Positions 19,252 to 41,862 of a DNA stretch of 64,000 bases are shown piece after piece. This DNA is from Acidobacteriota bacterium. GTDB lineage: Bacteria; Acidobacteriota; UBA890; WLXD01. Numbering within the stretch: the first letter of the stretch is position 1; every line of letters starts with the position of its first letter. Position numbers and translations under genes: made by a program. Below the pieces are notes generated by a model. It searched no databases. It saw nothing but the letters and a program-made list of their open reading frames with translations, and was not told the DNA's origin. The stretch is taken from positions 17,227 through 81,226 of the forward strand of contig CAXWPH010000009.1 in NCBI GenBank assembly GCA_963666055.2, read 5' to 3'.

Positions 19252-19839
19252 TCACGCGCCATGGCCTGCTAGCAGGCGAACACCCTCGACGCGCTGCCGG
19301 TACCTGTAGAGAACGCGGCGCACGTAGTTCTGGGTTTCGGCGTATGGCGGTATGCCGTCGTAACGACGCACCGCGCCCTCACCGGCGTTGTAGGCCGCCA
19401 GCGAGCGCTCGAGGTCTCCGTCGTATCTCTGCAGCAGCCCGCGGAGGTGGCGCACGCCAGCGTCCAGGTTCTGCCACGGATCGAAGGGCCTGTCGACGCC
19501 GTACTGGCGGGCGACATCCGGCATGAGCTGCATGAGCCCCATGGCGCCCCTCCGGGACACGGCGCGCGGGTTGAACCCCGATTCCATCTCGACCAGCGAC
19601 TCGACGAGCCGGTGGTCTACGCCACCACGCTCAGCGACGTCATGACTCAAGGAGATGAGCTCCGCAACAGCGAACGTAAGGCGCAGGCGACCCGGCGGCC
19701 GGAAGGTCGTAGGCAACCGGCGGTGGCAACTCGAGTCCGTGGCGCTGTCGGTAATCACCATGGCGCCATCGTCGGTGGTATAGACGCAGGGCTCCGACAT
19801 GCCCTGAGCGAGCGCCGCCGTCGAGGCCAAGCAGGCCAT
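19252..19839 (-). CDS. lytic transglycosylase (SLT)
   Basis: MESGFNPRAVS, GAMGLMQLMP, AAYNAGEG, IPPYAETQNYV; start uncertain. Confidence 0.9.
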   Translation of the reverse strand: MACLASTAALAQGMSEPCVYTTDDGAMVITDSATDSSCHRRLPTTFRPPGRLRLTFAVAELISLSHDVAERGGVDHRLVESLVEMESGFNPRAVSRRGAMGLMQLMPDVARQYGVDRPFDPWQNLDAGVRHLRGLLQRYDGDLERSLAAYNAGEGAVRRYDGIPPYAETQNYVRRVLYRYRQRVEGVRLLAGHGA

Positions 19840-19873
19840 GAGCGCCGTCAGACAAGAAAGCCTGCCGACGCCA

Positions 19874-21172
19874 CTAGCGACGCTGGGCACCACCAACCAG
19901 GCGACCCTCGAGCCACGAGAGATGCTGAGTGAGGTAACGGGCAATTTTCGGACGATCGGTTCCGCCCGCCGCGAGGAATCGATAGTAGTGGTCGACGGCG
20001 CGGTCGAAGTCACCGATTTCCTCGTAGACCAGACCCAGGTTGTAGTTGGCCAGCGGATCGTCTGGATTCAGCGCCAGCACCTGCATGAAGGCGCGCTCCG
20101 CGTCCTCGTAGCGTCTCCATCGAGTGAAGATCAAACCCTTGTTGGTATAGGCGTCGAGGCGTTCCGGATCCAGCGACAGGGTGCGGTTGAACTCGATCAG
20201 CGCGCCATCGTAGTTGCCCATGCCGTACAGCACCACGCCCAGGTTGTTATGCACCGACGCATTGTTCGGCTCGACCGAGGCAGCCTGTCGCAAGTGACGC
20301 TCAGCTGCCTCCAAACGCCCTTGTTGCTCATACAGAACACCCATGTTTGCGTTGACCTTGGCGTTGTGCGGATCGTGCCGCAGCGCTCGCTTGTAGGCCT
20401 CCTCGGCGCGGGCCAACGCGCCCTCTTTCTGGGCACGCACACCCGCCGCAAAGGCGTCGCGGACTCCCGGATCGAGGAGCGTCTTACTCGAAGGGGGCAC
20501 GCCACGACCGCGATCGGCAGCCACGTTTCCACCGGCCGACTCCCTGCTGCGGTCGGGCGCCACGCGCCTGGCGCTGGGAGCGGCTGGGCGGTTCGAAGTC
20601 AGGTCGATGTCGCTTCCGCGGCTCGAAGTTGCGGCTCGGTTCTCCACCTCGAGACTGAAGCTGGGCTCGGGTTGACGTTCGCTCGCATTCGCGGACGCCG
20701 CCGGCATCTCGGGCAGGTTGGCCGAAAGGTCGTTCATCTCGTTGTTGGCTGCCGCCGGCGGCAGCGGCTTCGCACCGGCCATCAGAGCGCCCGTGCCGAG
20801 GTCGCCGCCGGATGACTCGAGAGCGCCACCATGGGCCGCGTTCGGCGGCGGGAAGCGCACCGAATCACGCGGGCTCGCAGTGAGATCCGTCAACAGCGCA
20901 CGGCCGTCGTTGGCTCGCGGGCCGGAGAAGCTCGGCTGCATCCACCACAGCACCGTCGCCACGACAGCGACGCCGGTAGCTGCCATTGCGCCGATCCAAA
21001 CAGCCGGTCCAGGCTGGCGACGCATGGACGCCCGCGGGGCCTCGGGAGCGCTCAATCGGCGCAACAGCGCATTCGAGCCGTGCATCGGACCCGGATCCGG
21101 TACCACTGGTGCAGCGCCGCGACGCCGGTTCTCGTCCTGCACTCGCTTCAAGGCATCGAGGATGACACTCAT
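19874..21172 (-). CDS. membrane-anchored TPR protein (ExeB/MshN-like)
   Basis: MSVILDALKR N-terminus typical of ExeB-like proteins, one TM, low-complexity linker, about 5 TPRs. Confidence 0.75.
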   Translation of the reverse strand: MSVILDALKRVQDENRRRGAAPVVPDPGPMHGSNALLRRLSAPEAPRASMRRQPGPAVWIGAMAATGVAVVATVLWWMQPSFSGPRANDGRALLTDLTASPRDSVRFPPPNAAHGGALESSGGDLGTGALMAGAKPLPPAAANNEMNDLSANLPEMPAASANASERQPEPSFSLEVENRAATSSRGSDIDLTSNRPAAPSARRVAPDRSRESAGGNVAADRGRGVPPSSKTLLDPGVRDAFAAGVRAQKEGALARAEEAYKRALRHDPHNAKVNANMGVLYEQQGRLEAAERHLRQAASVEPNNASVHNNLGVVLYGMGNYDGALIEFNRTLSLDPERLDAYTNKGLIFTRWRRYEDAERAFMQVLALNPDDPLANYNLGLVYEEIGDFDRAVDHYYRFLAAGGTDRPKIARYLTQHLSWLEGRLVGGAQRR

Positions 21173-21179
21173 TGGCTTC

Positions 21180-22541
21180 CTAGCTCCCGGTGGCGTCGGC
21201 CACAGCGACCGCCTCGGCGTGGGCAAGCCCCGACTCCTTCAGCTTCGAGGCGGTCTCGCGTGCCGAGGCCTGATCGTCGAATTCACCTACGGTGAGTCGA
21301 TACATCGTGCCCATGCCGGGAACGTCGGCTCCGATCAGGAAGTGGACGTACCCAGCTTCGTGCAGACGTCCGCGCAACTCGAGGAGGTAGTCATCGTCGG
21401 GCTGCCGGAATGAGCTCAGATAAACCGTGAAGGGTTTCTGCGGCATCACCAGATCGACGACTACGTTGCCGCTACCGAAGGTCACGTCGTTCGGTGCCGC
21501 GCTGAGGCTGCCCTCGGCGCGCGGCGTCGGCGGATCGGCGAGCGCTGTGGTCTGGTTGGCGCTCCAGGCAGCGTAGCTGCCGGCACCGAGCGCGGCAGCC
21601 AACACGATTCCGGCGAGCGCCTGTACCGGCTTCGCCGAGCGCGCCTGTGCCGGCGGCTGCGAGACCATGTGGACGGGCTCCGGCCGCTCGATCGGCGCTG
21701 CGCCCGGCTCGGTCAAATCGAGTGTGGCGGCGGCTCGATCGATGATACCGGCATCGATCAGTCGAGTCTGCTGCGCGTAACCGGCAAGCAAAGCGCGGTC
21801 GCCCAGCAGGTTGACCAAGCGTGGCACACCTTCCGTATAACGATACAGACTGTCCAGGGCCGCGTCGTCGAACACCACGTCGCCATCGCTACCGGCGATG
21901 CGAAGTCGATGGTCGATGTAGCGGCCGACCTCGTCACGCCCGAAGGGCTGCAGCGTGTAGCGAACGGAAACCCGCTGTGCCAGCTGGCTGAGCTCGGGGG
22001 AGGCGAGCAACCGCCGCAGGCCGAGCTGCCCGGCGAGGACAATCTGCAGCAGCTTCTGCTTCGAGGTCTCGAGGTTCGACAGCAGACGGATCTGCTCCAT
22101 GACCGGCAGCGGCAAGTTCTGCGCCTCGTCGACGACGAGAACTGCGGCGCGACCCTGCATGCTGAGACCGATCAGATAATCGTTCAGCCGATCGACGAGC
22201 TCCTGTTTGCTCGCTTCCAGACCCTGCCCACCCTCGAACTCGGCCCGCGTGGCAACGCCGAAGTCCTGCAGGATGATGCGCAGCAAGTCCTGCTCGGACA
22301 GGTACGGGTTCAGGACGATCGCCGTAACGATGTCGTCGCCGAAGCCATCGAGCACGGTGCGCAGCAGCGTCGTTTTGCCGGTGCCAGCTGCCCCGACAAA
22401 GCACATGAAGCCCTCGCGCTCACGCACACCGTAGCGCAGCAAATCGCGTGCCTCCGCGTGGCACCCCGAGGCAAAGAAGTACTTCGGGTCGGGGGTCAGG
22501 CTGAAGGGCTTCTCGATGAGCCCGTGGAAGTCTAGATACAT
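21180..22541 (-). CDS. ExeA/MshM-family AAA ATPase with C-terminal SPOR-like domain
   Basis: MYLDFHGLIEKPFSLTPDP, GAAGTGKT, DEAQNL, IRLLSNLET, GVPRLVN. Confidence 0.9.
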   Translation of the reverse strand: MYLDFHGLIEKPFSLTPDPKYFFASGCHAEARDLLRYGVREREGFMCFVGAAGTGKTTLLRTVLDGFGDDIVTAIVLNPYLSEQDLLRIILQDFGVATRAEFEGGQGLEASKQELVDRLNDYLIGLSMQGRAAVLVVDEAQNLPLPVMEQIRLLSNLETSKQKLLQIVLAGQLGLRRLLASPELSQLAQRVSVRYTLQPFGRDEVGRYIDHRLRIAGSDGDVVFDDAALDSLYRYTEGVPRLVNLLGDRALLAGYAQQTRLIDAGIIDRAAATLDLTEPGAAPIERPEPVHMVSQPPAQARSAKPVQALAGIVLAAALGAGSYAAWSANQTTALADPPTPRAEGSLSAAPNDVTFGSGNVVVDLVMPQKPFTVYLSSFRQPDDDYLLELRGRLHEAGYVHFLIGADVPGMGTMYRLTVGEFDDQASARETASKLKESGLAHAEAVAVADATGS

Positions 22542-22560
22542 TGCTGGCCTCCGAAATCCA

Positions 22561-24303
22561 TCACTGGCCGTAACGCGCACCCGCGGCTGAGCGACGGCGC
22601 ATCTCGAGGCGCTGTAGCTGGTCGCGCATGATCTCGCGTATGCGGTCGCCGTTGAGTATCGTCGGGGTGATCATCACGATGAGGTCTGACTTGCGGGTGC
22701 TGCGATCCTGGCGCCTGAACAACGCGCCCAGGATCGGGATGTCCCCGAGTATCGGGGTCTTGGACACGGTCTCGCGCGTGACGTCCTCGAGGAGACCGCC
22801 GATAAAGATGGTCTCGCCCTCCCGAACACGGATGACGTTGTCGGTCACACGTACGTCCATGATCGGGAAGCGATCGCCGTTGGGCGAAATCGCCTCGCCG
22901 GCGAGGCCGGTAATCGCCGGCTGGATGCTCATCGTGATCCAACCATCGGCCGATATCTGCGGCGTAACCGAAAGGATGACGCCGTTGGTGACGGTGCCGG
23001 GGTTGGTCACCGTCTGAGCCAGTCCCCCATGTTCGTTGAACACGATCTGCGTGGTAAAGAACACCTCCTGCGTACCGACGGTCAGCAGCGCAACCTGGTT
23101 GTTCATGGTCACAACGGACGGCGACGACAGCACGTCGACATCGCCCTGATTCGACATCGCGCCGAGGATGGCGTTGAAGTTCTGGCGCTGGATACCGGCC
23201 TGGAAGATGTTCAGGCCGCTGGCGCCAACCGTTTGGGCAGCGGTCAGACCGAGATCGGTGAACACGGCGCTCCAATCGACGCCGGCGGCAAATTCCTGGT
23301 GCATCAGCACCTCGACGATCTTCGCCTCGATCAACACCTGCCGTTGAGCGATTTCCTCGACCGACGCCAGGTACTCACCGATCTCATCGAGCACGTCCGG
23401 ATAATGACGCACCATGACGCTGCCGGCGCTGCGATTGACGTGCAACGCGGGGCCATCGCCGCCGCCGAAGCCGCCGCCGCTGCCGAAGCCACCGAGCCCG
23501 CCGCGCAGCCGCTGGCGGTTGGGATCAAGCGGATCGAACCCGCCGCCGGCGAAACCGCCGCCGTATCCGGAGCCCATGAGAAAAAGAGTTCCCTCAGTGA
23601 TGTCGTCCCAGATGAAGCTCGGATCGCTCGACTGCACGGAGGCGGAGCCGCCGCCGCTGCCAGCGCGTCCACCACCGCCAATACCACCGCCAATACCACC
23701 GGCGCCCCCGTTGAAGCCACCATTGTTACCCTGGACACCGGTGCTTACGCCGATCGTACGCGAGCCGTTCCGGTCGGTCTGCACGATGTCGAGAAAGAAG
23801 AAGCGCGTCTCCATCTGCCGAAGCCCGATCTTCAGCACCCGGTTCTCGACTCGGTATTGGAGCCCGAGCGGGGTCAGCAAGCTGTCCAGCAGAACCGGCA
23901 GCGTCACGCCGACGATGTCCTGTGTCACTACGCCGGACACATCCGGCTCGATGACTATCGACAGATCAGACTCGCGCGCCACCGCCAGCAGGACGGCGCG
24001 GACGTCAGTCTCGCGCACCCTGAGGCTGTACGAGCGGCCGGGATCGTAGCCGGTGTCGTCGAGCGACTCCTCGATCGACGTGGCCGGTGCTTCGGCGATG
24101 CGGGCCTGCGGACCGAAGTCATCGATCGACGGGCGCCCGGGCTCGTCCCAACTGGGCAGCGAGGGCGCTGCGGCTGTCGATGTGGTCGGCGCTGCCTGGG
24201 CGTTGTTGTACCCACGCGACACGCAACCCGGAATCACGGCAACGGCAAGTAGCAGTGCCGCGGCCGTCTTCCAACGGGACGTTCGTACGCTTCGGTTTGT
24301 CAT
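22561..24303 (-). CDS. lipoprotein secretin, MshL-like
   Basis: Lipobox IPGC, QVLIEAKIVEV, LSSPSVVTMNNQ, VTPQI, PILGDIPILGALF; Gly-rich inserts. Confidence 0.9.
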   Translation of the reverse strand: MTNRSVRTSRWKTAAALLLAVAVIPGCVSRGYNNAQAAPTTSTAAAPSLPSWDEPGRPSIDDFGPQARIAEAPATSIEESLDDTGYDPGRSYSLRVRETDVRAVLLAVARESDLSIVIEPDVSGVVTQDIVGVTLPVLLDSLLTPLGLQYRVENRVLKIGLRQMETRFFFLDIVQTDRNGSRTIGVSTGVQGNNGGFNGGAGGIGGGIGGGGRAGSGGGSASVQSSDPSFIWDDITEGTLFLMGSGYGGGFAGGGFDPLDPNRQRLRGGLGGFGSGGGFGGGDGPALHVNRSAGSVMVRHYPDVLDEIGEYLASVEEIAQRQVLIEAKIVEVLMHQEFAAGVDWSAVFTDLGLTAAQTVGASGLNIFQAGIQRQNFNAILGAMSNQGDVDVLSSPSVVTMNNQVALLTVGTQEVFFTTQIVFNEHGGLAQTVTNPGTVTNGVILSVTPQISADGWITMSIQPAITGLAGEAISPNGDRFPIMDVRVTDNVIRVREGETIFIGGLLEDVTRETVSKTPILGDIPILGALFRRQDRSTRKSDLIVMITPTILNGDRIREIMRDQLQRLEMRRRSAAGARYGQ

Positions 24304-24338
24304 CCCAGATCTCCTCAATCCAGCTCTCAGCGGGCTCA

Positions 24339-24926
24339 TCAGTACCTCCCGACGGTGCCGCTGCGCGAGCTCAGACCGATCGCGGCGTCAGCCATTCTCA
24401 AGACATGCCGTTGTCCTCCAGAGGCGAAGACCACGGTCTCATCGGTTACATCGACTACCTGCATGCCGGCGACGTTGTCGCCGACGGTCACGACTTCGTT
24501 GTTGATCACCGCTACGCGGCGCCCAGTGCTATCGGTCACGATCGCTGACAAGTACAGGTCCTCATCCATCGTGACGCCAGCATCGACATAGACCGGGGCA
24601 AAGTTGTCGAGCGCCCAGATCTCGCGCGGTGTGAAAAATGGATTGCGACCCCAGTTCGAGTCGATCGTCAGATCGGCGGCGGTCAGCTCGCCGCGGCGCT
24701 GCGTCGCTTGGGTCGGCGTTCGCGGTGAGCTCGGCACCGGCCGTTGACCGGGCGTAGCCCCCGGCTGCTCAAAGCCCGGTGGGCTCAGGTTGGGATCCTG
24801 GGGCAGGGGTCCGGTCTGCGTGTCGCCGCCGAAACTTCCCCCCACGCCGGTGAAGTAGAGCGCGTTGTACAGCAGCACGGCCACAAAGACGATGATCAGC
24901 ACGGTCAGGACGTTTCGGCTACCCAT
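24339..24926 (-). CDS. MshK/PilP-like assembly protein
   Basis: N-terminal TM, GRNPFF, LSAI..RRVAVINNEVVTVGD; position before the secretin. Confidence 0.65.
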   Translation of the reverse strand: MGSRNVLTVLIIVFVAVLLYNALYFTGVGGSFGGDTQTGPLPQDPNLSPPGFEQPGATPGQRPVPSSPRTPTQATQRRGELTAADLTIDSNWGRNPFFTPREIWALDNFAPVYVDAGVTMDEDLYLSAIVTDSTGRRVAVINNEVVTVGDNVAGMQVVDVTDETVVFASGGQRHVLRMADAAIGLSSRSGTVGRY

Positions 24927-25584
24927 TGCCGCCTCCCTGAGCTCCGACGGGTCCGCGAGAGCGACTTGGATTCGCGTCGCCAGACGACGTATCCGAGGCG
25001 CTGGGACGGAAGTAGACGAGCAAACGTAGATCGGTAACTACTTCAGGGAAGGCGCGCTGGATCTCCAGACCCGCCACCTCGGCAACCCAACCCAAACGTC
25101 CGACCTGAGCAATGAAGCGGCTCGTGGCGACGAAATCTCCGAACACACGGCAGTTGAGTGGCACGTAGCTGGCACCCGGCACGGCACCGATCACGCGGAC
25201 AGACTCCGGCGGTGCACCACCGGTCCCAGCCACCGGCGCGGCGCTCTCACTGGTGATGAACAGCTCTATCCCCTCGGCCTCCCCCATCCGTACGAGCGAC
25301 TCGATCAGCAGGGTGAGCTCCGACTCCGGGCTGAGGCGGCTCATCAACTCGTCGTTAGAGCTCTGCCAGGCGGCGCTCTCGGCCGGTGAAGTGGGCGGAA
25401 TGCTCTCGATCTGGCGCTCTATCTGGTCGAGCTGTGATTCGGCAGCCTCGATGTTGCTGGTGGCGGCTGCCTCGCGCGCTCGCATCGGCTGTACGAACCA
25501 CAGCCAAAGCAAGAGCGCCACGAACAGCACCGCCATGCCGAGAATGGCAGCGCGAACCTGGGGTTGCAGATCCGACCAACTCAT
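24919..25584 (-). CDS. PilO/MshJ/GspM-like assembly protein
   Basis: TM plus coiled coil plus ferredoxin-like GDF..FI..V domain; gene order. Confidence 0.65.
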   Translation of the reverse strand: MSWSDLQPQVRAAILGMAVLFVALLLWLWFVQPMRAREAAATSNIEAAESQLDQIERQIESIPPTSPAESAAWQSSNDELMSRLSPESELTLLIESLVRMGEAEGIELFITSESAAPVAGTGGAPPESVRVIGAVPGASYVPLNCRVFGDFVATSRFIAQVGRLGWVAEVAGLEIQRAFPEVVTDLRLLVYFRPSASDTSSGDANPSRSRGPVGAQGGGNG

Positions 25585-27416
25585 TGTCCGCCTCCGGCGA
25601 TCGACCTGAGCTGAAGGGCGACCTTGAACCCGACCGACGTCGCCGTCGGTCCGAAGGCCGGCAGTTCATCCAGCGTGGTACGTAAAGGTTGCTGATCTCG
25701 GGGACCGCTCGTTACCGCGCCACGGCCGACCCACATCGGATCAAACAGCCACAGGCTGCTAGTGCGATCGTCGCGCGTCACCGCGGGTCGCCCGTTGCTG
25801 AACGATCTGTTGTTGAACGACCGGGGCCGCGATTCAGCGAAGGCGCCGCGTTGGAGGCTTCTATCACGGTCATTGCGCGTCACCGCTGATCGCCTGCCCT
25901 TGAACGAGGTTCCCCCTGGAGCGAAGCGGCCGCGCTGAGCGCCCAACTGTCGGGCCTGCTGCAACACCGCCGGGCCGCTGCGGGCGCCCTCCCACCCGAT
26001 CACCAACGGTTCGATCAGATGCACGTCGTGGACGATCGGATCGCTCACCATAGTGCTGTAGAAGCGGTTGAAGATAGCCTGCGAGCCTGAGCGCGAGTCG
26101 CCCAGCACCAGGCCCTGGACGACGGCATCCCAGTACCGCTGACCGCGTGGGCCGGCGACCGGTTGCCAGGTGACGTTCTCGATGACGAGCTCTTCCGGGG
26201 CCCGCTGGCTGAGACGTTGCAGAACTGCGCCCATCAGCGTTGTCTCGAGCGAGCGCTGCTCCAGCAGGGCTCGCCGTGCGGCGTGATTCGAACGCTCCTG
26301 CGCTGTGGCGCGAACCTCCCATAGCTCCAGCTGCCGCTGCGAGATCTGCTCCTGCACCTGCGCCATGCGATTGTTCTTGACTGCGGAGTTCAGCAGAGCC
26401 AGCACCCCCCAGCCCACCAGGAATAGCAACAAGGCCGCGGCGGCCACACGGCCGATCGACATCGCCTGACGGGTGCGGTCCTCGTTGACCTGCTCGGGAG
26501 ACACCAGGTTGCCGCTGTCTTTCCGGGCCATCGACGCCGCCCCGAAAGCCACCGCAAGCGCCGGCTGCTCGATCGGGTCAATGGCGTCGTTCAGGTCGAC
26601 GTGGTCGCTGACATCGAACAGCTCGACGTTTACGCCAAGGGACTCGCGCAGATGGGACGCCAGATCGGTGAGATCCTCCATGGGCCCAGCGAGCACCAGC
26701 CGCTGCACCGTAGCGCCTTGGGCACGCTGCCCGAAGTAAAGAAACGAGCGACGCAGCTCGGTGGCTACCAGATCGGCCATCGAGTCGGAGTCGCCGCGGA
26801 GGACGAAATCGTGCACCAGCTCGAGGTTCCCGTCCTGGAACACCAACAGGTAGGAGCGGCTGCCCGACAGGTAGGCAATCGCGGTACCGCCAGCGATCGG
26901 CGGCAACAGCTCCATCGCCTGCGCCAGCGCTGCAGGAACCGTGGTCACCGCATCGGCGCTGAGGCCGGCAGCCTCGACAGCGTCGATGGCATTGCGCATC
27001 GTCGATTTGTCGATCGCCGAGATCAGCACTTTCTGCTTGGCGACCCCGCCCTCGTGCACATAGCCAACTGCCATGTGTGAGTACACGAGCTGGCTCTCCG
27101 GAACTGGCGCCAGCTTGCGCACCTCGGCACCGGCGGCCAAATGGCGCTCGCTATCCGACATCTCGGGCATGTTGACCAGGTAGTGGTAGATATCACCGTC
27201 GATCACCACGGCGCGCGCCGATCGGCCGCCAATGCCCACGGTCTCGAACCAACGGCGAATCCACTGGCCCAGCTCGCGACCGCTAAAGCCGGCGTGGGCG
27301 GCATGGCCGGCACCGACCACACGCGGTGGGTCGCCGCGCAGCTCAGCGGCAGCCACGCTGCGCCCGAGCTCGATACCGACGCGACCGCCGCCGCGCAACT
27401 TATCCATGAAACCCAT
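25581..27416 (-). CDS. PilM-PilN fusion (MshI/GspL-like)
   Basis: Actin-like N-terminal domain (VGIELG, ELRRSFLYF, LVLAG), NL motif, TM, coiled coil, PilN-like domain. Confidence 0.75.
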   Translation of the reverse strand: MGFMDKLRGGGRVGIELGRSVAAAELRGDPPRVVGAGHAAHAGFSGRELGQWIRRWFETVGIGGRSARAVVIDGDIYHYLVNMPEMSDSERHLAAGAEVRKLAPVPESQLVYSHMAVGYVHEGGVAKQKVLISAIDKSTMRNAIDAVEAAGLSADAVTTVPAALAQAMELLPPIAGGTAIAYLSGSRSYLLVFQDGNLELVHDFVLRGDSDSMADLVATELRRSFLYFGQRAQGATVQRLVLAGPMEDLTDLASHLRESLGVNVELFDVSDHVDLNDAIDPIEQPALAVAFGAASMARKDSGNLVSPEQVNEDRTRQAMSIGRVAAAALLLFLVGWGVLALLNSAVKNNRMAQVQEQISQRQLELWEVRATAQERSNHAARRALLEQRSLETTLMGAVLQRLSQRAPEELVIENVTWQPVAGPRGQRYWDAVVQGLVLGDSRSGSQAIFNRFYSTMVSDPIVHDVHLIEPLVIGWEGARSGPAVLQQARQLGAQRGRFAPGGTSFKGRRSAVTRNDRDRSLQRGAFAESRPRSFNNRSFSNGRPAVTRDDRTSSLWLFDPMWVGRGAVTSGPRDQQPLRTTLDELPAFGPTATSVGFKVALQLRSIAGGGQ

Positions 27417-27418: not shown

Positions 27419-27550
27419 TCACCTCTGGCCGTTGACCGGCCGCTGTCGGTTGAGTTCAGCGTTGAGTTCAGACGCGTCGTCCGCAGGTTCGGCGTCGTCG
27501 ATGATCGTGGCGCCGGCCTCGTTCTTGGCGACGTAGTTGAACCTCGGCAT
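27419..27550 (-). pseudogene. N-terminal stub of the PilC/GspF/MshG platform gene (43 codons)
   Basis: MPRFNYVAKNEAG..IDDAEP matches the MPxFxYxAxxxxG start of GspF/PilC; lies 4 bp after the ATPase gene, where gspF is expected. Confidence 0.7.
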
Positions 27551-31630: not shown

Positions 31631-31648
31631 CAACCCTCTCCTTTTCCG

Positions 31649-32750: not shown

Positions 32751-32800
32751 CCATGACAGTACTTGTCCGTCCATGGCCGTCCTTGTCATATCTTGAGAGG
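32751..32800. repeat. degenerate 10-bp tandem direct repeats
   Basis: ccatgacagt/acttgtccgt/ccatggccgt/ccttgtcata/tcttgagagg upstream of the ABC genes. Confidence 0.6.
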
Positions 32801-33694: not shown

Positions 33695-33813
33695 GCGTCC
33701 TCGAAGATAGCGCCTTCGCCGACGTCATCGAGCATCGCTTTGATCACCGAGCATATGGCGCCGAGATCCTCCTTGACGCGAACGAATCGGGCGAGCCGCT
33801 TATACCGGGCGAC
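33695..33813 (-). pseudogene. isolated alpha1-C fragment of another pilin paralogue
   Basis: VARYKRLARFVRVKEDLGAICSVIKAMLDDVGEGAIF aligns with the same segment of neighbouring pilins; out of frame with the downstream copy. Confidence 0.65.
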
Positions 33814-34144
33814 CGCGTTGTGCACCGGATATGCCGAGAGCTGGCGACGTGAGCCACGTCGTTTGCGTGGTCCCCAATGTAGAGCCAACAGGAAGGCTTG
33901 ACCAAACCATCGCGCCCAGCGGCCGCGTTTGGCCCGCCGGTCGTGCCCTGGCGTCGTCGACCCTGGCAGCAGCAGCCAGCTCATGCCAGCACCCGCAGGC
34001 AAGCGGCTCAACGCGCGTCTGCGGAGTCCCAGCCTGGCGGTACATCGCCAGGGCCGCCCACGATTAGCAGATCGGGACATCGGCGGCCATGACCGCGCAC
34101 CGGTGCTCCGGCGGGCGCGCATGTGCGCGGCACTCTGGCGAGCA

Positions 34145-34594
34145 TCAACCGGAATCGTGTTCGCCTACGAGCTTGAGACCGGCATCGCCACCATGGTTCT
34201 TCTGCCAGTACGCGATGTCCATTTCGCGGAACCGCCAGTGGCCACCGACGCTAACGTACGGCAGTCGACCCTCGACGACCTCGCGCACCAGGGCATCGCG
34301 AGTCATCTCGAGGCGCAAGGCCAGGGTCGCAACCGTCTCTACGCGAATGCTGCTTTCCACGTGAGATCCCCAACTGGTCCAGGCTTGGTCAACAATTGGG
34401 TGGAGCGTATGCAGCCTAGGCAATCCGCCGGCACGTTCCAGCCAGAGCTCGATGTCGCGTTCGCGAAAGCGCAAGTTGCCCGCAATGCTGACGTAGGGAA
34501 GCCGACAACGCTTGACTTCGCGCTCGATGGTGCGGCGCGGCAGGCCGAAGCGTTCTGCCAGAGTTTCGACGGTCTCGAGGCGCTGCCGCTTCAT
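34145..34594 (-). CDS. tandem double excisionase/BldC-like HTH protein
   Basis: Two repeats of ETVxTLAxR....RLPYVSxxGxxRFRExDI. Confidence 0.8.
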   Translation of the reverse strand: MKRQRLETVETLAERFGLPRRTIEREVKRCRLPYVSIAGNLRFRERDIELWLERAGGLPRLHTLHPIVDQAWTSWGSHVESSIRVETVATLALRLEMTRDALVREVVEGRLPYVSVGGHWRFREMDIAYWQKNHGGDAGLKLVGEHDSG

Positions 34595-34814
34595 TGCTCA
34601 CAACCGGGGGGTTCAAGGACTTGCCTTGTCTGGTGGAGAGCATGAAGCGAGCGCTGCGCACGCGCAACAGATCGAGTCCAGCCTTGGCCGCACGGGTCCA
34701 CCGACCTCTGCCCCAACCGCAAAGACGGGTAGCAAAGGGACGGGTGGGAAAGCGCCAGATACCGCCGAACGTTCGGAGCCGTGGTTGGCTACGAGTCGCC
34801 GGCCACTGCGAACC

Positions 34815-35045
34815 TCAGAGTGAGGAGGACGCGTGGCGGCCTCGGCCGCCCTGAATCACGCGGAAGCGCGAGCGCTGCAGGCGGGAGCGCAAGTAGGACT
34901 CGACGTCGACCTTTCGATAGCGCCGGCGTCCTCCCACCATGACGAACGGGAGACGGCCGCGAGCCACCTCGCGCTGCACCGTCCTGGGGCTGACCTGTAG
35001 GTACTCGGCCAGCGAGAAGGTGGTGAACAGGGTTGTATCGGCCAT
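34815..35045 (-). CDS. excisionase/BldC-like HTH protein
   Basis: TTFSLAEYLQVSPRTVQREVARGRLPFVMVGGRRRYRKVDVESYL. Confidence 0.85.
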   Translation of the reverse strand: MADTTLFTTFSLAEYLQVSPRTVQREVARGRLPFVMVGGRRRYRKVDVESYLRSRLQRSRFRVIQGGRGRHASSSL

Positions 35046-35068: not shown

Positions 35069-35260
35069 TCATTCGCTCGATCTCTGTACGCTGGAATCGA
35101 CCCTACCGTTCGTCAACAAAGTACGCAAACGGCGCCGCAGCGCGGTGGCCCGCCATGTCCGGTGAAAACGCGCGATTCGATCAGAGGATCGACAGTGGTG
35201 GCCCTGGTCGCGTCGATCATGCCGGCTAGGCTGCAGTATGGCGAGCGACCCTCGACTCAT
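35069..35260 (-). CDS. questionable 63-aa ORF
   Basis: ATGA overlaps at both ends but Arg/Ser-rich with no motif. Confidence 0.2.
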   Translation of the reverse strand: MSRGSLAILQPSRHDRRDQGHHCRSSDRIARFHRTWRATALRRRLRTLLTNGRVDSSVQRSSE

Positions 35261-35928
35261 TGGATCCGGGCGCTGATGTCGAGGGGGCTGGCAGCGGCGT
35301 TGCCCAGCAGCTGCGCGTCGGCCGACGGGTACAGGGTGTCGAAGACACCATCAGGGCCCGCCGACAGGGCCCATACGGCCCGCTTCTGCTGCGCGCCACC
35401 GGCCTCGAAGGCGCCGGGATTCACCGACAGGTACTCCACGTTGATAGCGTAGCGGTTGCCCCATGGATCGCTCTGCATGTGCGCGTTGAGGTAGGGGCCG
35501 TTCCAACCCGATCCGCTGAGTGCGGTCTTCAACGGATAGCCGATGTCCCCTGACGAGGGACGATTATTGACCAACTGGTTGGAGATGAAATCGACCATCG
35601 TGGGGTCTGTGTTCAGCCAGGGCTCTGCACCAAGGCGCGCCTCGCCAACGGCGCCGGGCGAGACCAGCAGGGCGATGCGGCTCTGCCGCTGGCCGTCGGC
35701 GAACTGGGCGTGAAATCCGTTGTCCCGAAAGAACTCGAAGACCGAGTCGGCCAGGATCCGCACGTCGTTCTGCGCTCGTGCGAGCCGCGATTGGTGCAAG
35801 AAATTGAAGACCGACGGAGCAAGGATCAGACCGAGAATGGCGATCACCGCGAGGATGATGGTGATCTCCAACAGCGTGAAACCGCGCGCCCGCGCGCCGC
35901 TGCCGTCGGCTTCCGGCACTGGATTCAT
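35257..35928 (-). CDS. GspG-like pilin/pseudopilin, intact
   Basis: RG|FTLLEITIILAVIAILGLILAP, WNGPY, DPWGNRY, SAGPDG. Confidence 0.9.
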   Translation of the reverse strand: MNPVPEADGSGARARGFTLLEITIILAVIAILGLILAPSVFNFLHQSRLARAQNDVRILADSVFEFFRDNGFHAQFADGQRQSRIALLVSPGAVGEARLGAEPWLNTDPTMVDFISNQLVNNRPSSGDIGYPLKTALSGSGWNGPYLNAHMQSDPWGNRYAINVEYLSVNPGAFEAGGAQQKRAVWALSAGPDGVFDTLYPSADAQLLGNAAASPLDISARIQ

Positions 35929-36515
35929 CTGCTGCCCCCGGACACCACGCGGATCAAGTCGTCGTCGCCAGGTACCACGCCGTCGATCTCGAACGGCGTA
36001 TCGACCTCCTCGTCCGGGCCGGCAGACATCACGAAGATATCGAAGCGGTAGCCGGCGTTGTCCTCGGTGGCGCTGTCGGCGATCGGGTCCAGGTACAGAA
36101 CGTTCACCGCATAGCGGTTTCCCCAGGGGTCGGATCGCACCGGCGCCGACACGTAGGGGCCGCGCCAAGCGAACCGCGCGCCGAACCCTTGCTGGTTGGC
36201 GAACGGAGCGTTCCTAGACGGTACGGCGGCGATCCTGTCCTCGGGGGTCCGGTAACCGGCCGACGGTTCGTTGCCCGGCGTGTTCTGCACGAGATGGTTG
36301 GCAAGAGTATCGACCACGTGCCCATCGTACGGGCGCCGCCAGAGCCAGAGGTCGTCGCCGTTGCCCTCGTCAGGAGTGTCGCCGTCGCTGACGAGGCTCA
36401 GCACGGTCAGCACCACGAGGATGATCGTGTCCTCCACCAAGGTGAAGCCGCGGGCGCTCGCCTGGAACGATCGCATCCGTGCGGTGCGCGTCGTCTTGAG
36501 GTGAGTGCGGGTCAT
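35925..36515 (-). CDS. GspG-like pilin with in-frame deletion of most of alpha1
   Basis: RG|FTLVEDTIILVVLTVLS joins directly to LVSDGDTPD, skipping roughly 45-60 aa present in the intact paralogues; WRGPY, DPWGNRY, SAGPD, GDDD retained. Confidence 0.75.
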   Translation of the reverse strand: MTRTHLKTTRTARMRSFQASARGFTLVEDTIILVVLTVLSLVSDGDTPDEGNGDDLWLWRRPYDGHVVDTLANHLVQNTPGNEPSAGYRTPEDRIAAVPSRNAPFANQQGFGARFAWRGPYVSAPVRSDPWGNRYAVNVLYLDPIADSATEDNAGYRFDIFVMSAGPDEEVDTPFEIDGVVPGDDDLIRVVSGGSR

Positions 36516-36525
36516 CGAAGTCTCT

Positions 36526-37380
36526 TCAGCGCAAGGAACCGTAGGAAACCGGGTAGGCGATGTCGTCGTCGCCGAGAACGAAGCCGCCGACGGAACCGAA
36601 CGGCGTATCGAGCTCCTCGTCCGGACCTGCCGAGAGCACGATCACAGGCCGGATAAAGCCGACCGAGTCGCCGCCCTGAGGCACCGTCAGCCAAGCGACG
36701 TTGGCCATGTAGCGATTGCCCCACGGATCCGGACGGATTGCATCCAGATAGGGGCCGCGCCAGGCGAACTCCGAGTTGAAGCCCTGGCCACTGCTGCCGT
36801 CAAAGTGTAATCCGCCAGGCACACCCGAGCTGTGATCGCCCGAGACCATATCGGCGGGTGTCCGATAACCCTTCCAGTCGGGGCCAGTGCCGCCATCGCC
36901 AAAGTCGCCCGGGTAGTTCTGGATCAGGTGATTGGCGAAGGTGTCGACAATTCCGCCGTTCAGCCATACATCGGGAAAGTCGGTGCCGGCATCGCCCACC
37001 GTCGAGCCCAGCGGCTCGCGCCACTCATAGAACTGACTGCCACCATCCGGCGTATCGCCATCGCCGATGAGCAGGCCGACCGGCGGAGCGTCACCGTCCT
37101 CGGAGTAGCGCTCGGGCGAGCGCCAGCTGGAGCCGCCCATGGGTTTGGAGTGGAACGAGCTCTCGCCGGTGTCCTTCAGCATGTGCATCATTGCAGCGCC
37201 GATCGCGGCAACATCCTCGCGAACGCGCGCGTCGCGCGCGTCGCGCAAGAACACCCCAACCTGCGGCAGCAGAATGGCCGACAAGATCGCCAGGGCCATC
37301 ACGATGATCGACACCTCGATCAGCGTGAATCCGCGATCACCGACGTTATTCTGGTGCCGTCCCTGGCCCAGTTTCGTCAT
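36526..37380 (-). CDS. GspG-like large pilin/pseudopilin, intact
   Basis: GGGAG RBS, RG|FTLIEVSIIVMALAILSAILLP, DGDTPD, WRGPY, DPWGNRY, SAGPDEE, GDDDI. Confidence 0.9.
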   Translation of the reverse strand: MTKLGQGRHQNNVGDRGFTLIEVSIIVMALAILSAILLPQVGVFLRDARDARVREDVAAIGAAMMHMLKDTGESSFHSKPMGGSSWRSPERYSEDGDAPPVGLLIGDGDTPDGGSQFYEWREPLGSTVGDAGTDFPDVWLNGGIVDTFANHLIQNYPGDFGDGGTGPDWKGYRTPADMVSGDHSSGVPGGLHFDGSSGQGFNSEFAWRGPYLDAIRPDPWGNRYMANVAWLTVPQGGDSVGFIRPVIVLSAGPDEELDTPFGSVGGFVLGDDDIAYPVSYGSLR

Positions 37381-37424: not shown

Positions 37425-37909
37425 TCATCGTCCCGGCACGCTGTCGGGCCCGGTCGAGAACAACACCGCAATGTCGTCGTCCCCGGGGACGAACCCGTCC
37501 ATTTCGAAGATCGAATCGATTTCCTGATCCGGACCCGCCGACAGCACCACCACATCGATGCCGTCCGTCTGGCTCAGGAAGTAAACGTTGGCGGCGTAGC
37601 GGTTGCCCCACGGGTCGCCGTGGCCGAGGTTTAGGTAGGCGCCGCCCCAGGCGTGCAACTGCGAGAGCGTGCCGGCGATCGGATCGCCGCACTCGGCCAG
37701 GCTCGCGAAAGCGCGGCCGGGGTCGTTTCCGGGTACGTTGGAGATCAGGTAATACTCGAAGAAGTCCACCCATGTGCCATCGACGGGCTCTGCCCAGCGC
37801 TCTCCGCCTTCGGGTCCCAAAGCCGGGATGTCGCCGGCGGTAACTAGAATCTCGACAGCGTCGCCGTAGCCGTGATCTCGATCATCGTCATGCCATCGTT
37901 ACGGCTCAA
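37425..37909 (-). pseudogene. GspG-like pilin with out-of-frame deletion of alpha1
   Basis: GGGGAG RBS, TTG start, LSRNDG|MTMIEI, then a frame change near 37872 into GYGDAVEILVTAGDIP...WGGAY..DPWGNRY..SAGPD..GDDDI. Confidence 0.75.
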
Positions 37910-37985
37910 GGAATTCTCCCCTGGCGAGGGCACGGCTGCCGTAAATCTCCGGCGTCTGCGCCTCGGCGCAAACCGCAGACCATTT

Positions 37986-38204
37986 TCAGCGAATCGCCGC
38001 AACACGCTCTCCGAACAACGGTGTCGCGTCGTAGCGATCCTGCGATTGGCTCTGCAAGTACGTCTCCACGTCCTCCGGGCGATACCGGATGAGGTCGCGG
38101 ATGCGGATGTACGGCAGTCGGCCGGCCTCACGCTCTCGACGCACGGTATGCGGCGAAACCTGCAAGTACTCGGCCAGAGATTCTGTCGTGTGAAGACCCA
38201 ACAT
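37986..38204 (-). CDS. excisionase/BldC-like HTH protein
   Basis: GGAGG RBS; TTESLAEYLQVSPHTVRREREAGRLPYIRIRDLIRYRPEDVETYL. Confidence 0.85.
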   Translation of the reverse strand: MLGLHTTESLAEYLQVSPHTVRREREAGRLPYIRIRDLIRYRPEDVETYLQSQSQDRYDATPLFGERVAAIR

Positions 38205-38277
38205 TGACTGCCTCCGTGTTTCCCCGCCCTTGCGGGGGTTCGGTCAACTGCGGTGCGAGTACAGGACCCGGTAGGAC

Positions 38278-38496
38278 CTAGCGCTCGCCCCAGTTGGCCT
38301 GCGAAGCAAACGTATCGGTGTCCAGCGACATGCTGGCGTTACGCTCGAGATATGACCGCACGTCGCTTTCGCGATAGCGGATCTGCCCGCGAACGCGGCC
38401 AAACGGCAAGCGGCCCTCCTTGCGCTCGCGACGGATCGTCCGCGGCGAGACCTGGAGCAGCTCTGCGAGCGTCTCGGTGGTGTAAAGCTTCTGCAC
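38278..38496 (-). CDS. excisionase/BldC-like HTH protein (first gene after the sigma54 promoter)
   Basis: GGGGAG RBS, GTG start; YTTETLAELLQVSPRTIRRERKEGRLPFGRVRGQIRYRESDV. Confidence 0.85.
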   Translation of the reverse strand: MQKLYTTETLAELLQVSPRTIRRERKEGRLPFGRVRGQIRYRESDVRSYLERNASMSLDTDTFASQANWGER

Positions 38497-38571: not shown

Positions 38572-38588
38572 AGCAATCGCCGTGCCAA
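38572..38588 (-). promoter_or_regulatory. sigma54 (-24/-12) promoter of the HTH/pilin operon
   Basis: Minus strand TTGGCACGGCGATTGCT, a full match to TGGCAC-N5-TTGCW. Confidence 0.9.
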
Positions 38589-38773
38589 ACTCGGCCGCGC
38601 CTCGTACGAGGCCACCGAACGCAGTCCGCTGTTTCTTCATAAGTCACTGCAACAAAAGCGTTTATCGAATACTAGCGGTGCTCTACAGTGCTGGTAGCGT
38701 CTCCCCCGTCCGCCCGTACATTACGTCGATCGGAACTGACTGGGACACCGTAACTCACTGATATCAAAAGGTT

Positions 38774-38812
38774 TGCCGTCTCACCTACAAGACATGTAGG
38801 AACTCCTACATG
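38774..38812. promoter_or_regulatory. tandem enhancer (UAS) sites
   Basis: Perfect palindrome CATGTAGG-aact-CCTACATG (TGT-N10-ACA core) at 38793-38812 and a weaker TGC-N10-ACA copy sharing CCTACA 21 bp away; about 200 bp upstream of the promoter; IHF-like TATCAAaaggTTT adjacent. Confidence 0.65.
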
Positions 38813-38964: not shown

Positions 38965-40359
38965 TCAGCCTTTCAGTCGCTCCACGTCGATGCCGTGTTT
39001 CTTGACCTTGTGCCACATCGAGCGCTCGGAGATGCCCAGCCGTCGAGCCGCCGTCGTCTGGACGCCGCTGCTGCTACGTAGCGCGTCGATCAGAATCTGG
39101 CGTTCGATGCGGTACATCGTGATCGGCAGGCTATCATCGGTCCCGGTACGTGCCGCGCGCTCGGCGACAAGCGATCCCTGCACGACTTCTAGCGGTAGGT
39201 CTTGTCGCCGCAACTCGTTGCCTTCGCTCCAGATCACCGCACGCTCGACCGCATGGCGCAGCTGCCGTACGTTCCCCGGCCAGGCATAACCAACCAAGGC
39301 GTCGAGGGCCGCAGGTGAGATGCGCTCCAGGCGCTTGCCGTGCACCTCGTTGGCTTCGTGGATGAAGTGTTCGGTGAGCAACGGAATGTCCTGCAAGCGC
39401 TCGCGCAGGGGCGGCAGATCAACGGTGACGACGTTGAGACGGAAGTAGAGGTCTTCGCGAAAGCGGCCCTCGCGGACCTCGAGTGCAAGATTGCGGTTGG
39501 TAGCTGCCACCACCCGAACGTCAACCCGCACGGGCGCCACTCCGCCAACCCGATCGAACTCACGCTCCTGCAACACGCGCAAGATCTTGGCCTGCGACTC
39601 CAGGCTCATGTCGCCGATCTCGTCGAGCAAGATCGTGCCGCGGTCGGCGAGCTCGAATTTTCCGATCTTGCGCTGGTGTGCGCCAGTGAACGCGCCCCGC
39701 TCGTGACCAAACAGCTCACTTTCCAGAAGCGTCTGGGGGATCGCCACGCAGTTCAGCTTCACGAACGGGCCGTCGGCCCGCTTGCTCTTGAAGTGAATGG
39801 CCGCCGCCACGAGCTCCTTGCCAGTGCCACTCTCGCCAAGCACCAGGACGGTGGTGTCCGACCGCACGACCTTCCCCAGGGTCTCGAAGACTTGTTTCAT
39901 GGCCCGCGACTTGCCGATCATGTTGCCGAAACCGCTGACCCCTCCGGCCTGGGCGCGTAGCCTGCTGCCCTCACGCGCCAAGGTGCGCCGCTCTAGCGCG
40001 CGTCCGATGACGACGCGCAGCTCGTCGATCTGTATCGGCTTGGTGAAGAAGTCGTACGCTCCGCGGTCAACCGCAAGCGCAGCGGTACGCCGGCTGCCAT
40101 AGGCGGTCATCATCGCCACCAGAACGGCTGGCTGAAGTCGCCGCACCTCCTCGAGTATGTCCAGTCCGGCGGCATCAGGGAGGCGCTGATCTAGCAATAC
40201 GAAGTCGTATCCTCCGTCGGGCTCTGCCAGCAGCTCGAGGCCCTCGGCAGCGGTCTCGGCCTCATCGATCACGAGACCTTCGCGAGCCAACGCTGCATGG
40301 AGCGTATAGCGCAACTCGGGATCATCATCGATGATGAGCAGTCGCTTCGTATCTACCAT
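38965..40359 (-). CDS. NtrC/PilR-like sigma54-dependent response regulator
   Basis: Receiver domain (IIDDD, LLDQRLP, TKP), GESGTGKE, GAFTGA, WPGNVRQL, HTH. Confidence 0.95.
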   Translation of the reverse strand: MVDTKRLLIIDDDPELRYTLHAALAREGLVIDEAETAAEGLELLAEPDGGYDFVLLDQRLPDAAGLDILEEVRRLQPAVLVAMMTAYGSRRTAALAVDRGAYDFFTKPIQIDELRVVIGRALERRTLAREGSRLRAQAGGVSGFGNMIGKSRAMKQVFETLGKVVRSDTTVLVLGESGTGKELVAAAIHFKSKRADGPFVKLNCVAIPQTLLESELFGHERGAFTGAHQRKIGKFELADRGTILLDEIGDMSLESQAKILRVLQEREFDRVGGVAPVRVDVRVVAATNRNLALEVREGRFREDLYFRLNVVTVDLPPLRERLQDIPLLTEHFIHEANEVHGKRLERISPAALDALVGYAWPGNVRQLRHAVERAVIWSEGNELRRQDLPLEVVQGSLVAERAARTGTDDSLPITMYRIERQILIDALRSSSGVQTTAARRLGISERSMWHKVKKHGIDVERLKG

Positions 40360-41862
40360 CTACGCTGCTCCTGCCGTTAGCTGCTCGCCGGCAGGGAACT
40401 GGGCCGGGCCCACAAAGTTGGCGGCGCAAGGTGGCAGTCGCAGCATGAATTCGGTGCCGCGCTCGAGCGTGCTATCGACATCGATCGATCCACCATGGGC
40501 ATAGACGATCTGCTGTGCAATGGCCAAACCCAGGCCAGTACCGCCGCGCCCCGAAACGAACGGTTGGAAGATGCGCTCGCGGTCTTCTGAGGCGACGAAC
40601 GACCCCGTGTTCGCAACCCGCACCTCCACCTGCGCATCGCGGACTCGGGTCGCTACCTCGATGCGCCCGCCGGCCGGAGTGTGGGCGTAGGCGTTGCGCA
40701 ACAGGTTCTCGATGGCGCGGCTGAGTCGCGCTGGGTCAACCATGCAAGGGGGGAGCCCGGGCTCGAAGCCCTCGGAGAGCACAATGTCATCGTCCTCGGT
40801 CTGACCCATTTTCACGAACTCGACGGTTTCGTGGACCAACGAGCTGATATCGCGTTGCTCGAGATCGTGGATCTCGGTGGGCACCAGATCGAGGAGCTGC
40901 CCCACTAGTCGCTCGATGCGCTGAGACGCGCGCGACAGGACATCCAGGTGACGATGTCCCTCATCGCCTGGAGGTAGGCGCTCGTGCAGCACCTGGATGA
41001 GGCCGAGCACCGAGCTCAACGGGTTGCGGATCTCGTGCGCCAACTCGGCGGCGAATCCGCCAATGACCATCAGGCGATGCGCACGGCTTACTTGGCGCTG
41101 CACTTTCTCGGTGTCGGCGGCGCGCTCGAACACCACCAATACTGAGATGATCGACTCCTCGCCAGCAAGCACTGTGCCTTGGAGATCGACCATGAGCCGC
41201 TGTCCGCGCCGATTGACCCAAGCCAAGCCGTGTAAGTCGAACGGCTCACTGCGCTCCAGAGCCCCGACGAGCGCCCGGGTCAGCTCGACGTTATCGGGCA
41301 CGTCCGGGATCAGCTCGGAGAATTCGCGGCCGATCATCAGATCGGCGTCTACACCCAGCGCCACGGCGGCGCGCGGATTGATCGACAACACGCGTCCGTC
41401 GCGCGCGAACGAGATCAGGCCCTCGACAACCGAGCTACGGGCATATCCGCGTATCGATTCCAACAGATCATTGATCGCACTCACCAGCGGCGCGACCTCG
41501 CCATCGGCCTCCAACTCCACTGGGAAGCTGAAGTTCCGGCGCGCCAGAAACTCGGTCCGTCTGGCAAGTGTGCGTAGCTGATTAGTAAACGCCAGCGCGA
41601 TCGACAGGCCTATGCAAGCACCGAAGACAGTCAGGCCCAGGAGCCAAAGCCACGACGCCGGCAGGGTCGCCCAGACAAGAGCGGCATCGCGCGGCGACAT
41701 CAGGTTCGTAGCATCGGTGCGCCCGACTTCGAACGCATAGAGCCCGACACCGAACGCCAGCAGCGCCATTACGAACGGTAGCGCTACTGCGAGCCGCAGG
41801 TGCAGCTTCCAGCTAATACGGCGCCTGACGCCGCTGAGCGCACCAAACCAACGATCGAGCAT
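40360..41862 (-). CDS. sensor histidine kinase (2 TM, HAMP, PAS; PilS/AtoS-like)
   Basis: LAHEIRNPL H-box, NLLRNA, IFQPFVS, GTGLGL. Confidence 0.93.
   Translation of the reverse strand: MLDRWFGALSGVRRRISWKLHLRLAVALPFVMALLAFGVGLYAFEVGRTDATNLMSPRDAALVWATLPASWLWLLGLTVFGACIGLSIALAFTNQLRTLARRTEFLARRNFSFPVELEADGEVAPLVSAINDLLESIRGYARSSVVEGLISFARDGRVLSINPRAAVALGVDADLMIGREFSELIPDVPDNVELTRALVGALERSEPFDLHGLAWVNRRGQRLMVDLQGTVLAGEESIISVLVVFERAADTEKVQRQVSRAHRLMVIGGFAAELAHEIRNPLSSVLGLIQVLHERLPPGDEGHRHLDVLSRASQRIERLVGQLLDLVPTEIHDLEQRDISSLVHETVEFVKMGQTEDDDIVLSEGFEPGLPPCMVDPARLSRAIENLLRNAYAHTPAGGRIEVATRVRDAQVEVRVANTGSFVASEDRERIFQPFVSGRGGTGLGLAIAQQIVYAHGGSIDVDSTLERGTEFMLRLPPCAANFVGPAQFPAGEQLTAGAA

Follow-up and report, generated by a model that had tools for sequence, protein, structure and literature searches.

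Which kind of type IV filament does an acidobacterial locus encode when its regulators, pilins and secretin recall different known systems, and can this copy of it still assemble one? The locus occupies positions 19252..41862 of the window, a 64,000-nucleotide stretch of Acidobacteriota bacterium DNA (assembly GCA_963666055.2, contig CAXWPH010000009.1, positions 17,227 to 81,226, forward strand) from a 5.7-Mb genome that is 95.7% complete (G000). A preliminary description of this DNA listed the genes and proposed a "hybrid" filament system of an uncharacterised subtype; open reading frames and domain matches bear out the gene list, all on the minus strand and in the order given (Table 1). The reading preferred here, probable though far from assured, is that deletions have broken the window's copy of a type IV filament locus found across the family, that the platform and secretin of this locus belong to a lineage sister to the mannose-sensitive haemagglutinin (MSH, MSHA) machine, and that intact relatives likely build a surface filament from large pilins with a predicted GspG fold.

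Deletions in the window copy

Aligned to its congener G002 (440 kb compared in total), the window locus has seven deletions within 10.4 kb, and elsewhere in the compared DNA (~427 kb) there are only 14 further window-side gaps of at least 50 bp. Genome-wide decay is ruled out, the deletions being concentrated in the filament locus. They explain several oddities of the preliminary description. In its "platform stub" a ~1.94-kb deletion has run the beginning of the platform gene into the tail of pilin C, its "double HTH" is two helix-turn-helix (HTH) genes fused by a 138-bp deletion, and its pilin "fragments" are likewise products of these losses. Of its "four pilins", two are whole (A3 and A5, of the 284 and 223 amino acids reported), one is an out-of-frame fusion of two genes and one has lost 71 codons. 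The cognate platform gene was not found anywhere else in the window genome. Full length in the window are the assembly ATPase, the PilMN, PilO and PilP-like genes, the secretin, ExeA, the tetratricopeptide repeat (TPR) gene and the ATP-binding cassette (ABC) genes. Substitutions in the remaining genes, nonsynonymous (N) and synonymous (S), number 93N/168S on the window's branch versus 83N/123S (p 0.34); relaxed amino-acid selection on that branch is not seen, with no excess amino-acid change in surviving genes. Platform, pilin C and all B pilins of the locus are lost from the window copy, which is probably a recently decayed and non-functional remnant.

The 5.6 kb at window 27502-33115 are 97% identical to G002, and the flanks 89-93%, which suggests recombination or a recent sweep.

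The intact locus in relatives

A close match to the window secretin is found in nine of ten other family genomes and in none of 15 sister-family genomes. Gene maps were drawn for nine family relatives, all but G008. The complete layout begins with a kinase, a sigma54 activator, HTH1, HTH2, pilins A1-A5, HTH3, HTH4a and HTH4b, and continues with two to six variable B pilins, the ABC trio, ATPase, platform, pilin C, PilMN, PilO, a PilP-like gene, secretin, ExeA and TPR gene, so that an intact locus holds 8-12 pilin paralogues. The search for intact versions that the preliminary description had recommended thus finds its parts linked in relatives: among the ten genomes mapped, the window's included, four have the whole machine (G002, G003, G004 and G010), G009 has it whole as far as the contig end, G006 has one frameshift in the ATPase, and in G000, G001, G005 and G007 it is broken by differing lesions.

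Outside the family, in a sample of 401 genomes of the phylum, an MshL-like secretin is matched at E 1e-57 or better in 14 genomes and the pilin profile at E 1e-15 in six. Many of the related loci are simpler, with one or two GspG-like pilins of ~200 amino acids, an ATPase, a platform, a pilin-C-like gene, PilM and a secretin; an ABC trio stands beside a related secretin in one other family (G209). One related system, in G076 (L134/L226), has four tandem pilin-C-like genes of ~386 amino acids with Ig-like domains, and in the same genome a sigma54 regulator stands beside two GspG-like pilins. No earlier description of such a system in Acidobacteria was found in the largely open-access literature searched, apart from S6 Table of PMC6668835, whose list of all detected systems may include a model-level call of related ones; S2 Table of that paper has no Acidobacteria row under the names searched.

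Ancestry of the assembly machine

The MSH loci used as references come from 61 genomes, all of the class to which a named Oceanimonas record belongs, and were chosen by an MshL score over the cut-off and by neighbourhood; the set is without Vibrio and Campylobacterota. The window's platform gene being deleted, the relatives' intact gene was used for the platform tree, built from 34 rows under LG+G4. This tree unites the family's protein with 13 others (Acidobacteriota, a Poribacteria record, two loci of Gammaproteobacteria, two further records) in a 17-row clade (99/95) that is sister to MshG (100/98), not inside it, and lies apart from GspF and PilC. The secretin finds its best family in TIGR02519 (MshL), at 200 bits against a cut-off of 250; its tree places it inside an MshL-wide clade (97/94), outside gammaproteobacterial MshL (100/99), apart from GspD and PilQ, and nearest to two other acidobacterial families (98/95). 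The ATPase scores below the PilB and GspE cut-offs and falls outside the PilB clade, and its grouping with canonical gammaproteobacterial MshE alone is rejected (p-AU 0.006, approximately unbiased test).

The phylogeny proposed earlier for ATPase and secretin therefore puts both outside the canonical MSHA clade, with the secretin still within the MshL-wide one and a wider ATPase clade not rejected. In these trees the platform and the secretin keep company within a single lineage related to MSH, so "hybrid" was an overstatement. By the same comparisons the machine is MSHA-related, yet outside canonical gammaproteobacterial MSHA and outside the T2SS (type II secretion system). The idea of an uncharacterised subtype survives to that extent, although the window copy itself is decayed and without a platform gene. 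The system is not assigned to MSH, T2SS or the type IVa pilus (T4aP), because a defining feature of each was tested and is lacking here.

With MSHA the locus shares an MshL-type secretin, the ExeA/MshM ATPase that adjoins the secretin in the window and in the relatives' maps, a TPR protein, an ATPase with an MshEN domain, an mshI-N-like gene order and a platform sister to MshG, as well as the lack of its own PilT and prepilin peptidase; no prepilin peptidase of their own is present in MSH loci (PMC6668835). It differs in its 8-12 large GspG-like pilins in place of the short MshA, its ATPase outside the canonical MshE clade, its ABC trio, sigma54 pair and five HTH genes, and the position of ATPase and platform upstream of the mshI-N homologues; the locus maps show no adhesin gene of MshQ size.

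Another comparison is the Myxococcus-type T4aP (pilBTC-pilSR-pilA-ABC-pilD), which likewise has a kinase and sigma54 regulator upstream of the pilins, ABC genes downstream and large pilins. The window genome, however, holds that locus separately: contig C15 carries pilB-pilT-pilC-kinase-regulator-pilA-ABC-pilD together with a T2SS-like cluster, and contig C14 carries a Tad-like cluster and PilQ. In the window locus the sigma54 promoter precedes HTH genes first, and PilT, a PilQ-type secretin and PilD are missing. The statement that no PilT or prepilin peptidase is present thus holds for the locus and not for the genome; both are encoded elsewhere and therefore available in trans. "PilSR" control turns out to be an analogy, since the window regulator is equally close to three paralogues (341-344 bits), one of which fills the PilR position of the canonical T4aP locus on another contig. 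The ABC trio, too, scores below the curated Gld cut-offs (GldA 286/403, GldF 119/289, GldG 42/390 bits, score/cut-off).

Pilins

The pilins are GspG-like and diversified, as the preliminary description had it. In the structure prediction it had called for, A3 is modelled with a predicted local distance difference test (pLDDT) score of 92.6 from a 114-row alignment, and the best matches of the model are EpsG (Z 6.6, root-mean-square deviation 2.5, 101 aligned) and PulG (Z 6.2); MshA reaches Z 2.1, a weak match that does not exclude kinship. Among the ESM Atlas neighbours, which have generic names or none, T2SSG marks 32-96% of the members in five of the six rows, and profile matches to T2SSG/TIGR01710 are weak and below cut-off. 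P22, the DPWG motif and the C-terminal acidic loop of T2SS pseudopilins (GspG/PulG/EpsG) are present along with the predicted core fold, and the acidic motif S-x-G-x-[DN]...DD is near-invariant in these pilins. PulG binds Ca2+ through D117 and D124/D125 (PMC13081927); the earlier suggestion of Ca2+-stabilised subunits stays tentative, the motif being conserved but the loop longer than that of PulG in most pilins.

Differences from T2SS are equally plain. Mature pilins measure 198-275 amino acids (A1-A5 and C) and 233-367 (B), that is 198-367 in all, versus 131 for GspG of the reference loci; the acidic loop spans 15-28 residues in A and B pilins, the PulG-like spacing of 6 occurring only in pilin C. 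The B pilins have paired cysteines: C44 and C231 occur together in 49 of 114 homologues, are both missing from 65 and never occur singly, in sequences that are kin and not independent, and a C44-C231 disulfide is predicted. Platform and secretin lie outside GspF/GspD. No GspH/I/J/K-like set was seen in the locus maps or in a motif scan whose pattern required E5, no dedicated profile scan of all the relatives' open reading frames being made, and every pilin found by that pattern carries E5 and the GspG-like motifs. Canonical MSH pilins of the sampled loci are 112-168 amino acids long, with a few minor ones to 281, and are without these motifs.

The A pilins are one-to-one orthologues across genera (44-74% identity), and the two nearest named records to A5 are acidobacterial (88-91% identity). 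The B pilins share 77% identity over their first 53 residues and 43% in the head. Pilin C is modelled from a 13-row alignment (pLDDT 81.8) with an added beta-sandwich; in Foldseek the model gives weak matches to prealbumin/Ig-like folds and to GspG of enterohaemorrhagic Escherichia coli, and CarboxypepD_reg scores over its cut-off in a distant homologue. Such a modelled extra domain would suit a tip or primer role.

In the last B pilin of the window, positions 33353-33515 encode an insert rich in cysteine, which has up to 10 Cys in G006/G010 and is absent from G002. An orphan B-type pilin (234 amino acids mature) with a repeat promoter stands at G000:C15:1,681,240-1,681,960, and each family genome has one to three such orphans. 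In relatives, insertions are frequent in the variable pilin region, a hot spot (L033 9300-17500 of G006, L038, L030) where cargo between B genes includes transposase-like open reading frames identified by inspection, an RVT_1 gene, and radical SAM, SpoIIE and MacB/FtsX genes; G006, G007 and G010 each have a single B pilin in inverted orientation. Shufflon-like DNA rearrangement among the pilins was considered and set aside, the window having no long exact or inverted repeats; recombinases were not searched by profile.

Regulatory DNA

The earlier assignment of an enhancer and a sigma54 promoter holds as a prediction. Upstream of HTH1, the enhancer-like palindrome, the IHF-like boxes (matched to the IHF consensus) and the sigma54 box are kept in all eight family genomes aligned, and such -24/-12 boxes number only 10 in 5.7 Mb. 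A second class of site lies upstream of HTH3, HTH4a, HTH4b and the B pilins, where two to four head-to-tail 10-bp repeats are followed by -35/-10-like boxes 17 bp apart. A promoter model built from 12 training sites in three other genera was scored against 4,227 control upstream regions, and two of its three best matches in the 5.7-Mb genome fall inside the window. It exceeds 98% of controls for 14/14 HTH3/4a/4b regions, 4/5 B1 regions (the miss being the window's own, mis-set region, p 0.50) and 9/12 orphan-pilin regions (best sites at -124 to -157), and 99% of controls for 5/8 other B and 4/4 ABC regions; matches are rare in A and C pilin regions (2/19) and absent from the 8 machine or kinase regions.

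BldC, a stand-alone winged HTH (wHTH) protein, binds direct repeats head to tail and cooperatively (PMC5859096). The locus resembles BldC, Xis and RdfS regulators in having a 72-amino-acid stand-alone wHTH beside head-to-tail repeats one DNA turn apart; it differs in the sequence of the repeat, in having five paralogues within a pilus locus, and in scoring below the cut-off of the BldC model. By this analogy, and from their co-location, the repeats may be operators of the locus HTH proteins.

A second copy of the enhancer, sigma54 promoter and HTH1, 94% identical, occurs at G000:C15:535,600-536,300 (L044) without kinase, regulator or pilins, and an additional copy of HTH1 is present in G004 as well. 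At G000:C12:273,677-273,716 the 10-bp repeat forms a perfect array of four units that is not followed by -35/-10 boxes.

Table 1. Features of the filament locus in window coordinates, with deletions relative to G002
Feature	Position	Strand	Remarks
Sensor histidine kinase (HAMP, PAS, HisKA, HATPase)	40360..41994	-	domain matches; syntenic in relatives
Sigma54-dependent response regulator	38965..40359	-	domain and family matches
Predicted enhancer palindrome, TGT-N10-ACA type	38795..38810	-	second half-site 38782-38790
IHF-like box	38751..38763	-	second, weaker near 38650-38664
Sigma54 -24/-12 promoter (predicted)	38573..38587	-
HTH1, 72 aa, Xis/BldC-like (HTH_17)	38278..38496	-	82-97% identical in 10/10 family genomes
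HTH2, 72 aa	37986..38204	-
Pilin A1/A2 remnant (5' end of A1, 3' end of A2)	37425..37950	-	out-of-frame fusion
Deletion, 984 bp	37870		fuses pilins A1 and A2 out of frame
Pilin A3, intact, 284 aa (267 mature)	36526..37380	-	predicted GspG-like core with large insertion
Deletion, 213 bp	36392		in-frame, 71 codons, helix end of pilin A4
Pilin A4	35925..36515	-	broken by in-frame deletion
Pilin A5, intact, 223 aa (207 mature)	35257..35928	-
10-bp direct repeats and -35/-10-like boxes upstream of HTH3	35100..35160	-	top match of whole genome
HTH3	34815..35045	-
Predicted direct-repeat promoter upstream of HTH4a	34639..34699	-
HTH4a/HTH4b fusion	34145..34594	-
Deletion, 138 bp	34410		fuses HTH4a/HTH4b, removes HTH4b promoter
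Predicted direct-repeat promoter of pilin B1	33876..33934	-	located, unscored in window; orthologous sites scored
Deletion, 198 bp	33803		one flank of pilin B1 remnant
Pilin B1 remnant, 108 bp	33695..33802	-	between two deletions
Deletion, 1276 bp	33695		other flank of pilin B1 remnant
Last variable (B) pilin	32843..33696	-	5' end missing
Deletion, 108 bp	~33110		inside last variable pilin
Four 10-bp direct repeats upstream of ABC operon	32754..32788	-
ABC trio: ATPase, permease, GldG-like accessory protein (GldA/F/G-like)	29400..32620	-	domain matches
Assembly ATPase (T2SSE, MshEN domain)	27555..29309	-	domain matches; cyclic di-GMP motif match over cut-off
Deletion, ~1.94 kb	27502-27515		joins platform-gene start to pilin C end
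43-aa stub	27419..27550	-	first ~16 codons of platform gene and last ~31 of pilin C
PilM-PilN-like fusion, MshI position	25581..27416	-	domain matches
PilO/GspM-like protein, MshJ position	24919..25584	-	domain matches
Small membrane protein, MshK position	24339..24926	-	weak T2SSB/GspC-like match
MshL-like secretin, lipobox-like Cys	22561..24339	-	family match, tree
ExeA/MshM-type AAA ATPase with SPOR domain	21180..22580	-	domain matches
TPR protein, MshN position	19874..21172	-	domain matches
Lytic transglycosylase (SLT), start uncertain	19252..19872	-	domain match

Two neighbours flank the locus. Directly downstream, at window 16296-19206, lies an operon for a type III polyketide synthase, an FAD-dependent oxidoreductase and a methyltransferase. 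At window 42099-42995, on the plus strand and divergent from the kinase, is a conserved gene for a predicted lipoprotein with no NCBIfam match; it keeps its place in all six family genomes mapped over that region.

Proposed mechanism and its alternatives

In intact relatives the kinase would activate the sigma54 regulator, which would transcribe HTH1-HTH2 and the five conserved pilins A1-A5. The BldC/Xis-like HTH proteins would then bind the 10-bp repeats head to tail and so activate promoters of sigma70 type in front of the remaining HTH genes, individual B pilins, orphan B pilins elsewhere and the ABC-machine operon. Prepilins may be processed by the genome's shared PilD and polymerised by the platform and an ATPase gated by cyclic di-GMP. 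Pilin C, with its extra Ig-like domain, would serve as tip or primer, the B pilins as interchangeable shaft subunits, and the filament would leave through the MshL-like secretin to act in adhesion or cell contact.

Several observations weigh against the preferred reading. Foldseek gives no match under E 0.001 for the A3 model, and Z 6-7 is a range that the structure-comparison tool calls a possibly common arrangement. For several members of the platform clade the stretch of 20-40 kb read holds no such pilin, and some keep pilins elsewhere. The test does not reject one clade that joins every MshL-linked ATPase (p 0.11), and the sister clade of the ATPase, with a likelihood-ratio support (SH-aLRT) of 94 in a quick mixture tree, collapsed in the LG+G4 tree (37 of 49 rows, 12 being dropped for speed). 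The genome-wide count of the repeat motif equals that of the reversed control (3 versus 3 at 20 bits); it was in part the test genus that first drew attention to the motif, the genomes compared are kin and the evidence is positional, and another regulator could bind the repeats. By the substitution counts, which hold no excess amino-acid change, the loss is either recent or some selection persists.

A non-canonical secretion system, whose GspG-like periplasmic endopilus pushes folded substrates through the secretin with pilins differing by substrate, is unlikely. The predicted fold, the conserved acidic motif, the ExeA-type ATPase with a weakly GspC-like protein, the lack of PilT in the locus and the influence of major pseudopilin loops on secretion specificity (PMC13081927) would all suit it, but platform and secretin group with MSH and not with GspF/GspD, no GspH/I/J/K-like set turned up beside the motif-bearing pilins under a search pattern that required E5, and the genome has a separate T2SS-like cluster. 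It is also rather improbable that this is an ordinary divergent MSH member by the MacSyFinder definition, with enlarged MshA paralogues, so that the difference is mostly one of naming. Here the shorter, motif-free pilins of canonical MSH, an A3 model closer to EpsG/PulG than to MshA, the different gene order, the missing MshQ-sized gene and a secretin under the MshL cut-off have to be set against a platform sister to MshG, an all-MshL ATPase clade that is not rejected, and the presence of four of the five mandatory roles (ATPase, platform, MshL-like secretin, MshM-like ATPase), of which three suffice (PMC6668835). The locus maps show no competence gene, the genome has a canonical T4aP with PilT elsewhere and 8-12 acidic variable pilins would fit adhesion better, all of which makes a DNA-uptake pilus like the Campylobacter Cts system, whose gene order may resemble mshL-M-N-E-G, very improbable. 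In its favour, C. jejuni does import DNA by a T2SS/T4P-like system that includes CtsD, CtsE, CtsP and CtsX (PMC10046745).

As to the state of the window copy, there is a slender chance that it still works, with a platform borrowed from the T4aP or T2SS-like cluster and with A3, A5 and the orphan pilin as subunits. The full length of its remaining machine genes and ABC genes and its unremarkable substitution counts are compatible with this, but no other platform in the genome exceeds 27-28% identity to the cognate one, an extension ATPase generally serves its own system (PMC11656802), and the machine was lost by other lesions in three more family genomes. That the lesions are assembly errors is barely credible in spite of short microhomologies at several junctions. 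Every junction is bridged by contigs of runs X2 and X3 (two studies), which cover 26000-33083 and 33055-38314 and show 0-1 differences, on which ground an artefact is rejected; one of the two studies may be the window's own source, and the other is separate. A related strain in run X8 has 1,936 extra bases at the platform gene.

Biological implications

Beyond the preferred reading of a broken family-wide filament locus, a broader proposal is tentative and perhaps doubtful: that these loci represent an unnamed branch of type IV filaments that is sister to MSHA, occurs in several families of Acidobacteriota as well as in Poribacteria and other phyla, and makes extracellular pili of pseudopilin fold, and that in this family a repertoire of 10-15 genes allows the shaft to be chosen gene by gene through a sigma54-to-BldC-like cascade, giving surface variation without DNA rearrangement. 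The GspG fold and its acidic loop are treated as a mark of the T2SS endopilus. A GspG fold on an MSH-type machine bears on the origin of T2SS and MSH from type IVa pili, and on whether the pseudopilin fold predated secretion.

Independent, repeated loss (4 of 10 genomes) implies that the system is dispensable in some niches. The window holds the wrong copy to study, the whole machines being those of G002, G003, G004 and G010. Large major pilins stiffen T4aP in Myxococcus (10.1101/2023.07.22.550172), and the family offers a natural series of pilins of 200-370 amino acids with insertions, paired cysteines and an Ig-like domain. It also gives BldC-like proteins a concrete role beyond Streptomyces that can be tested, on an operator that is predicted.

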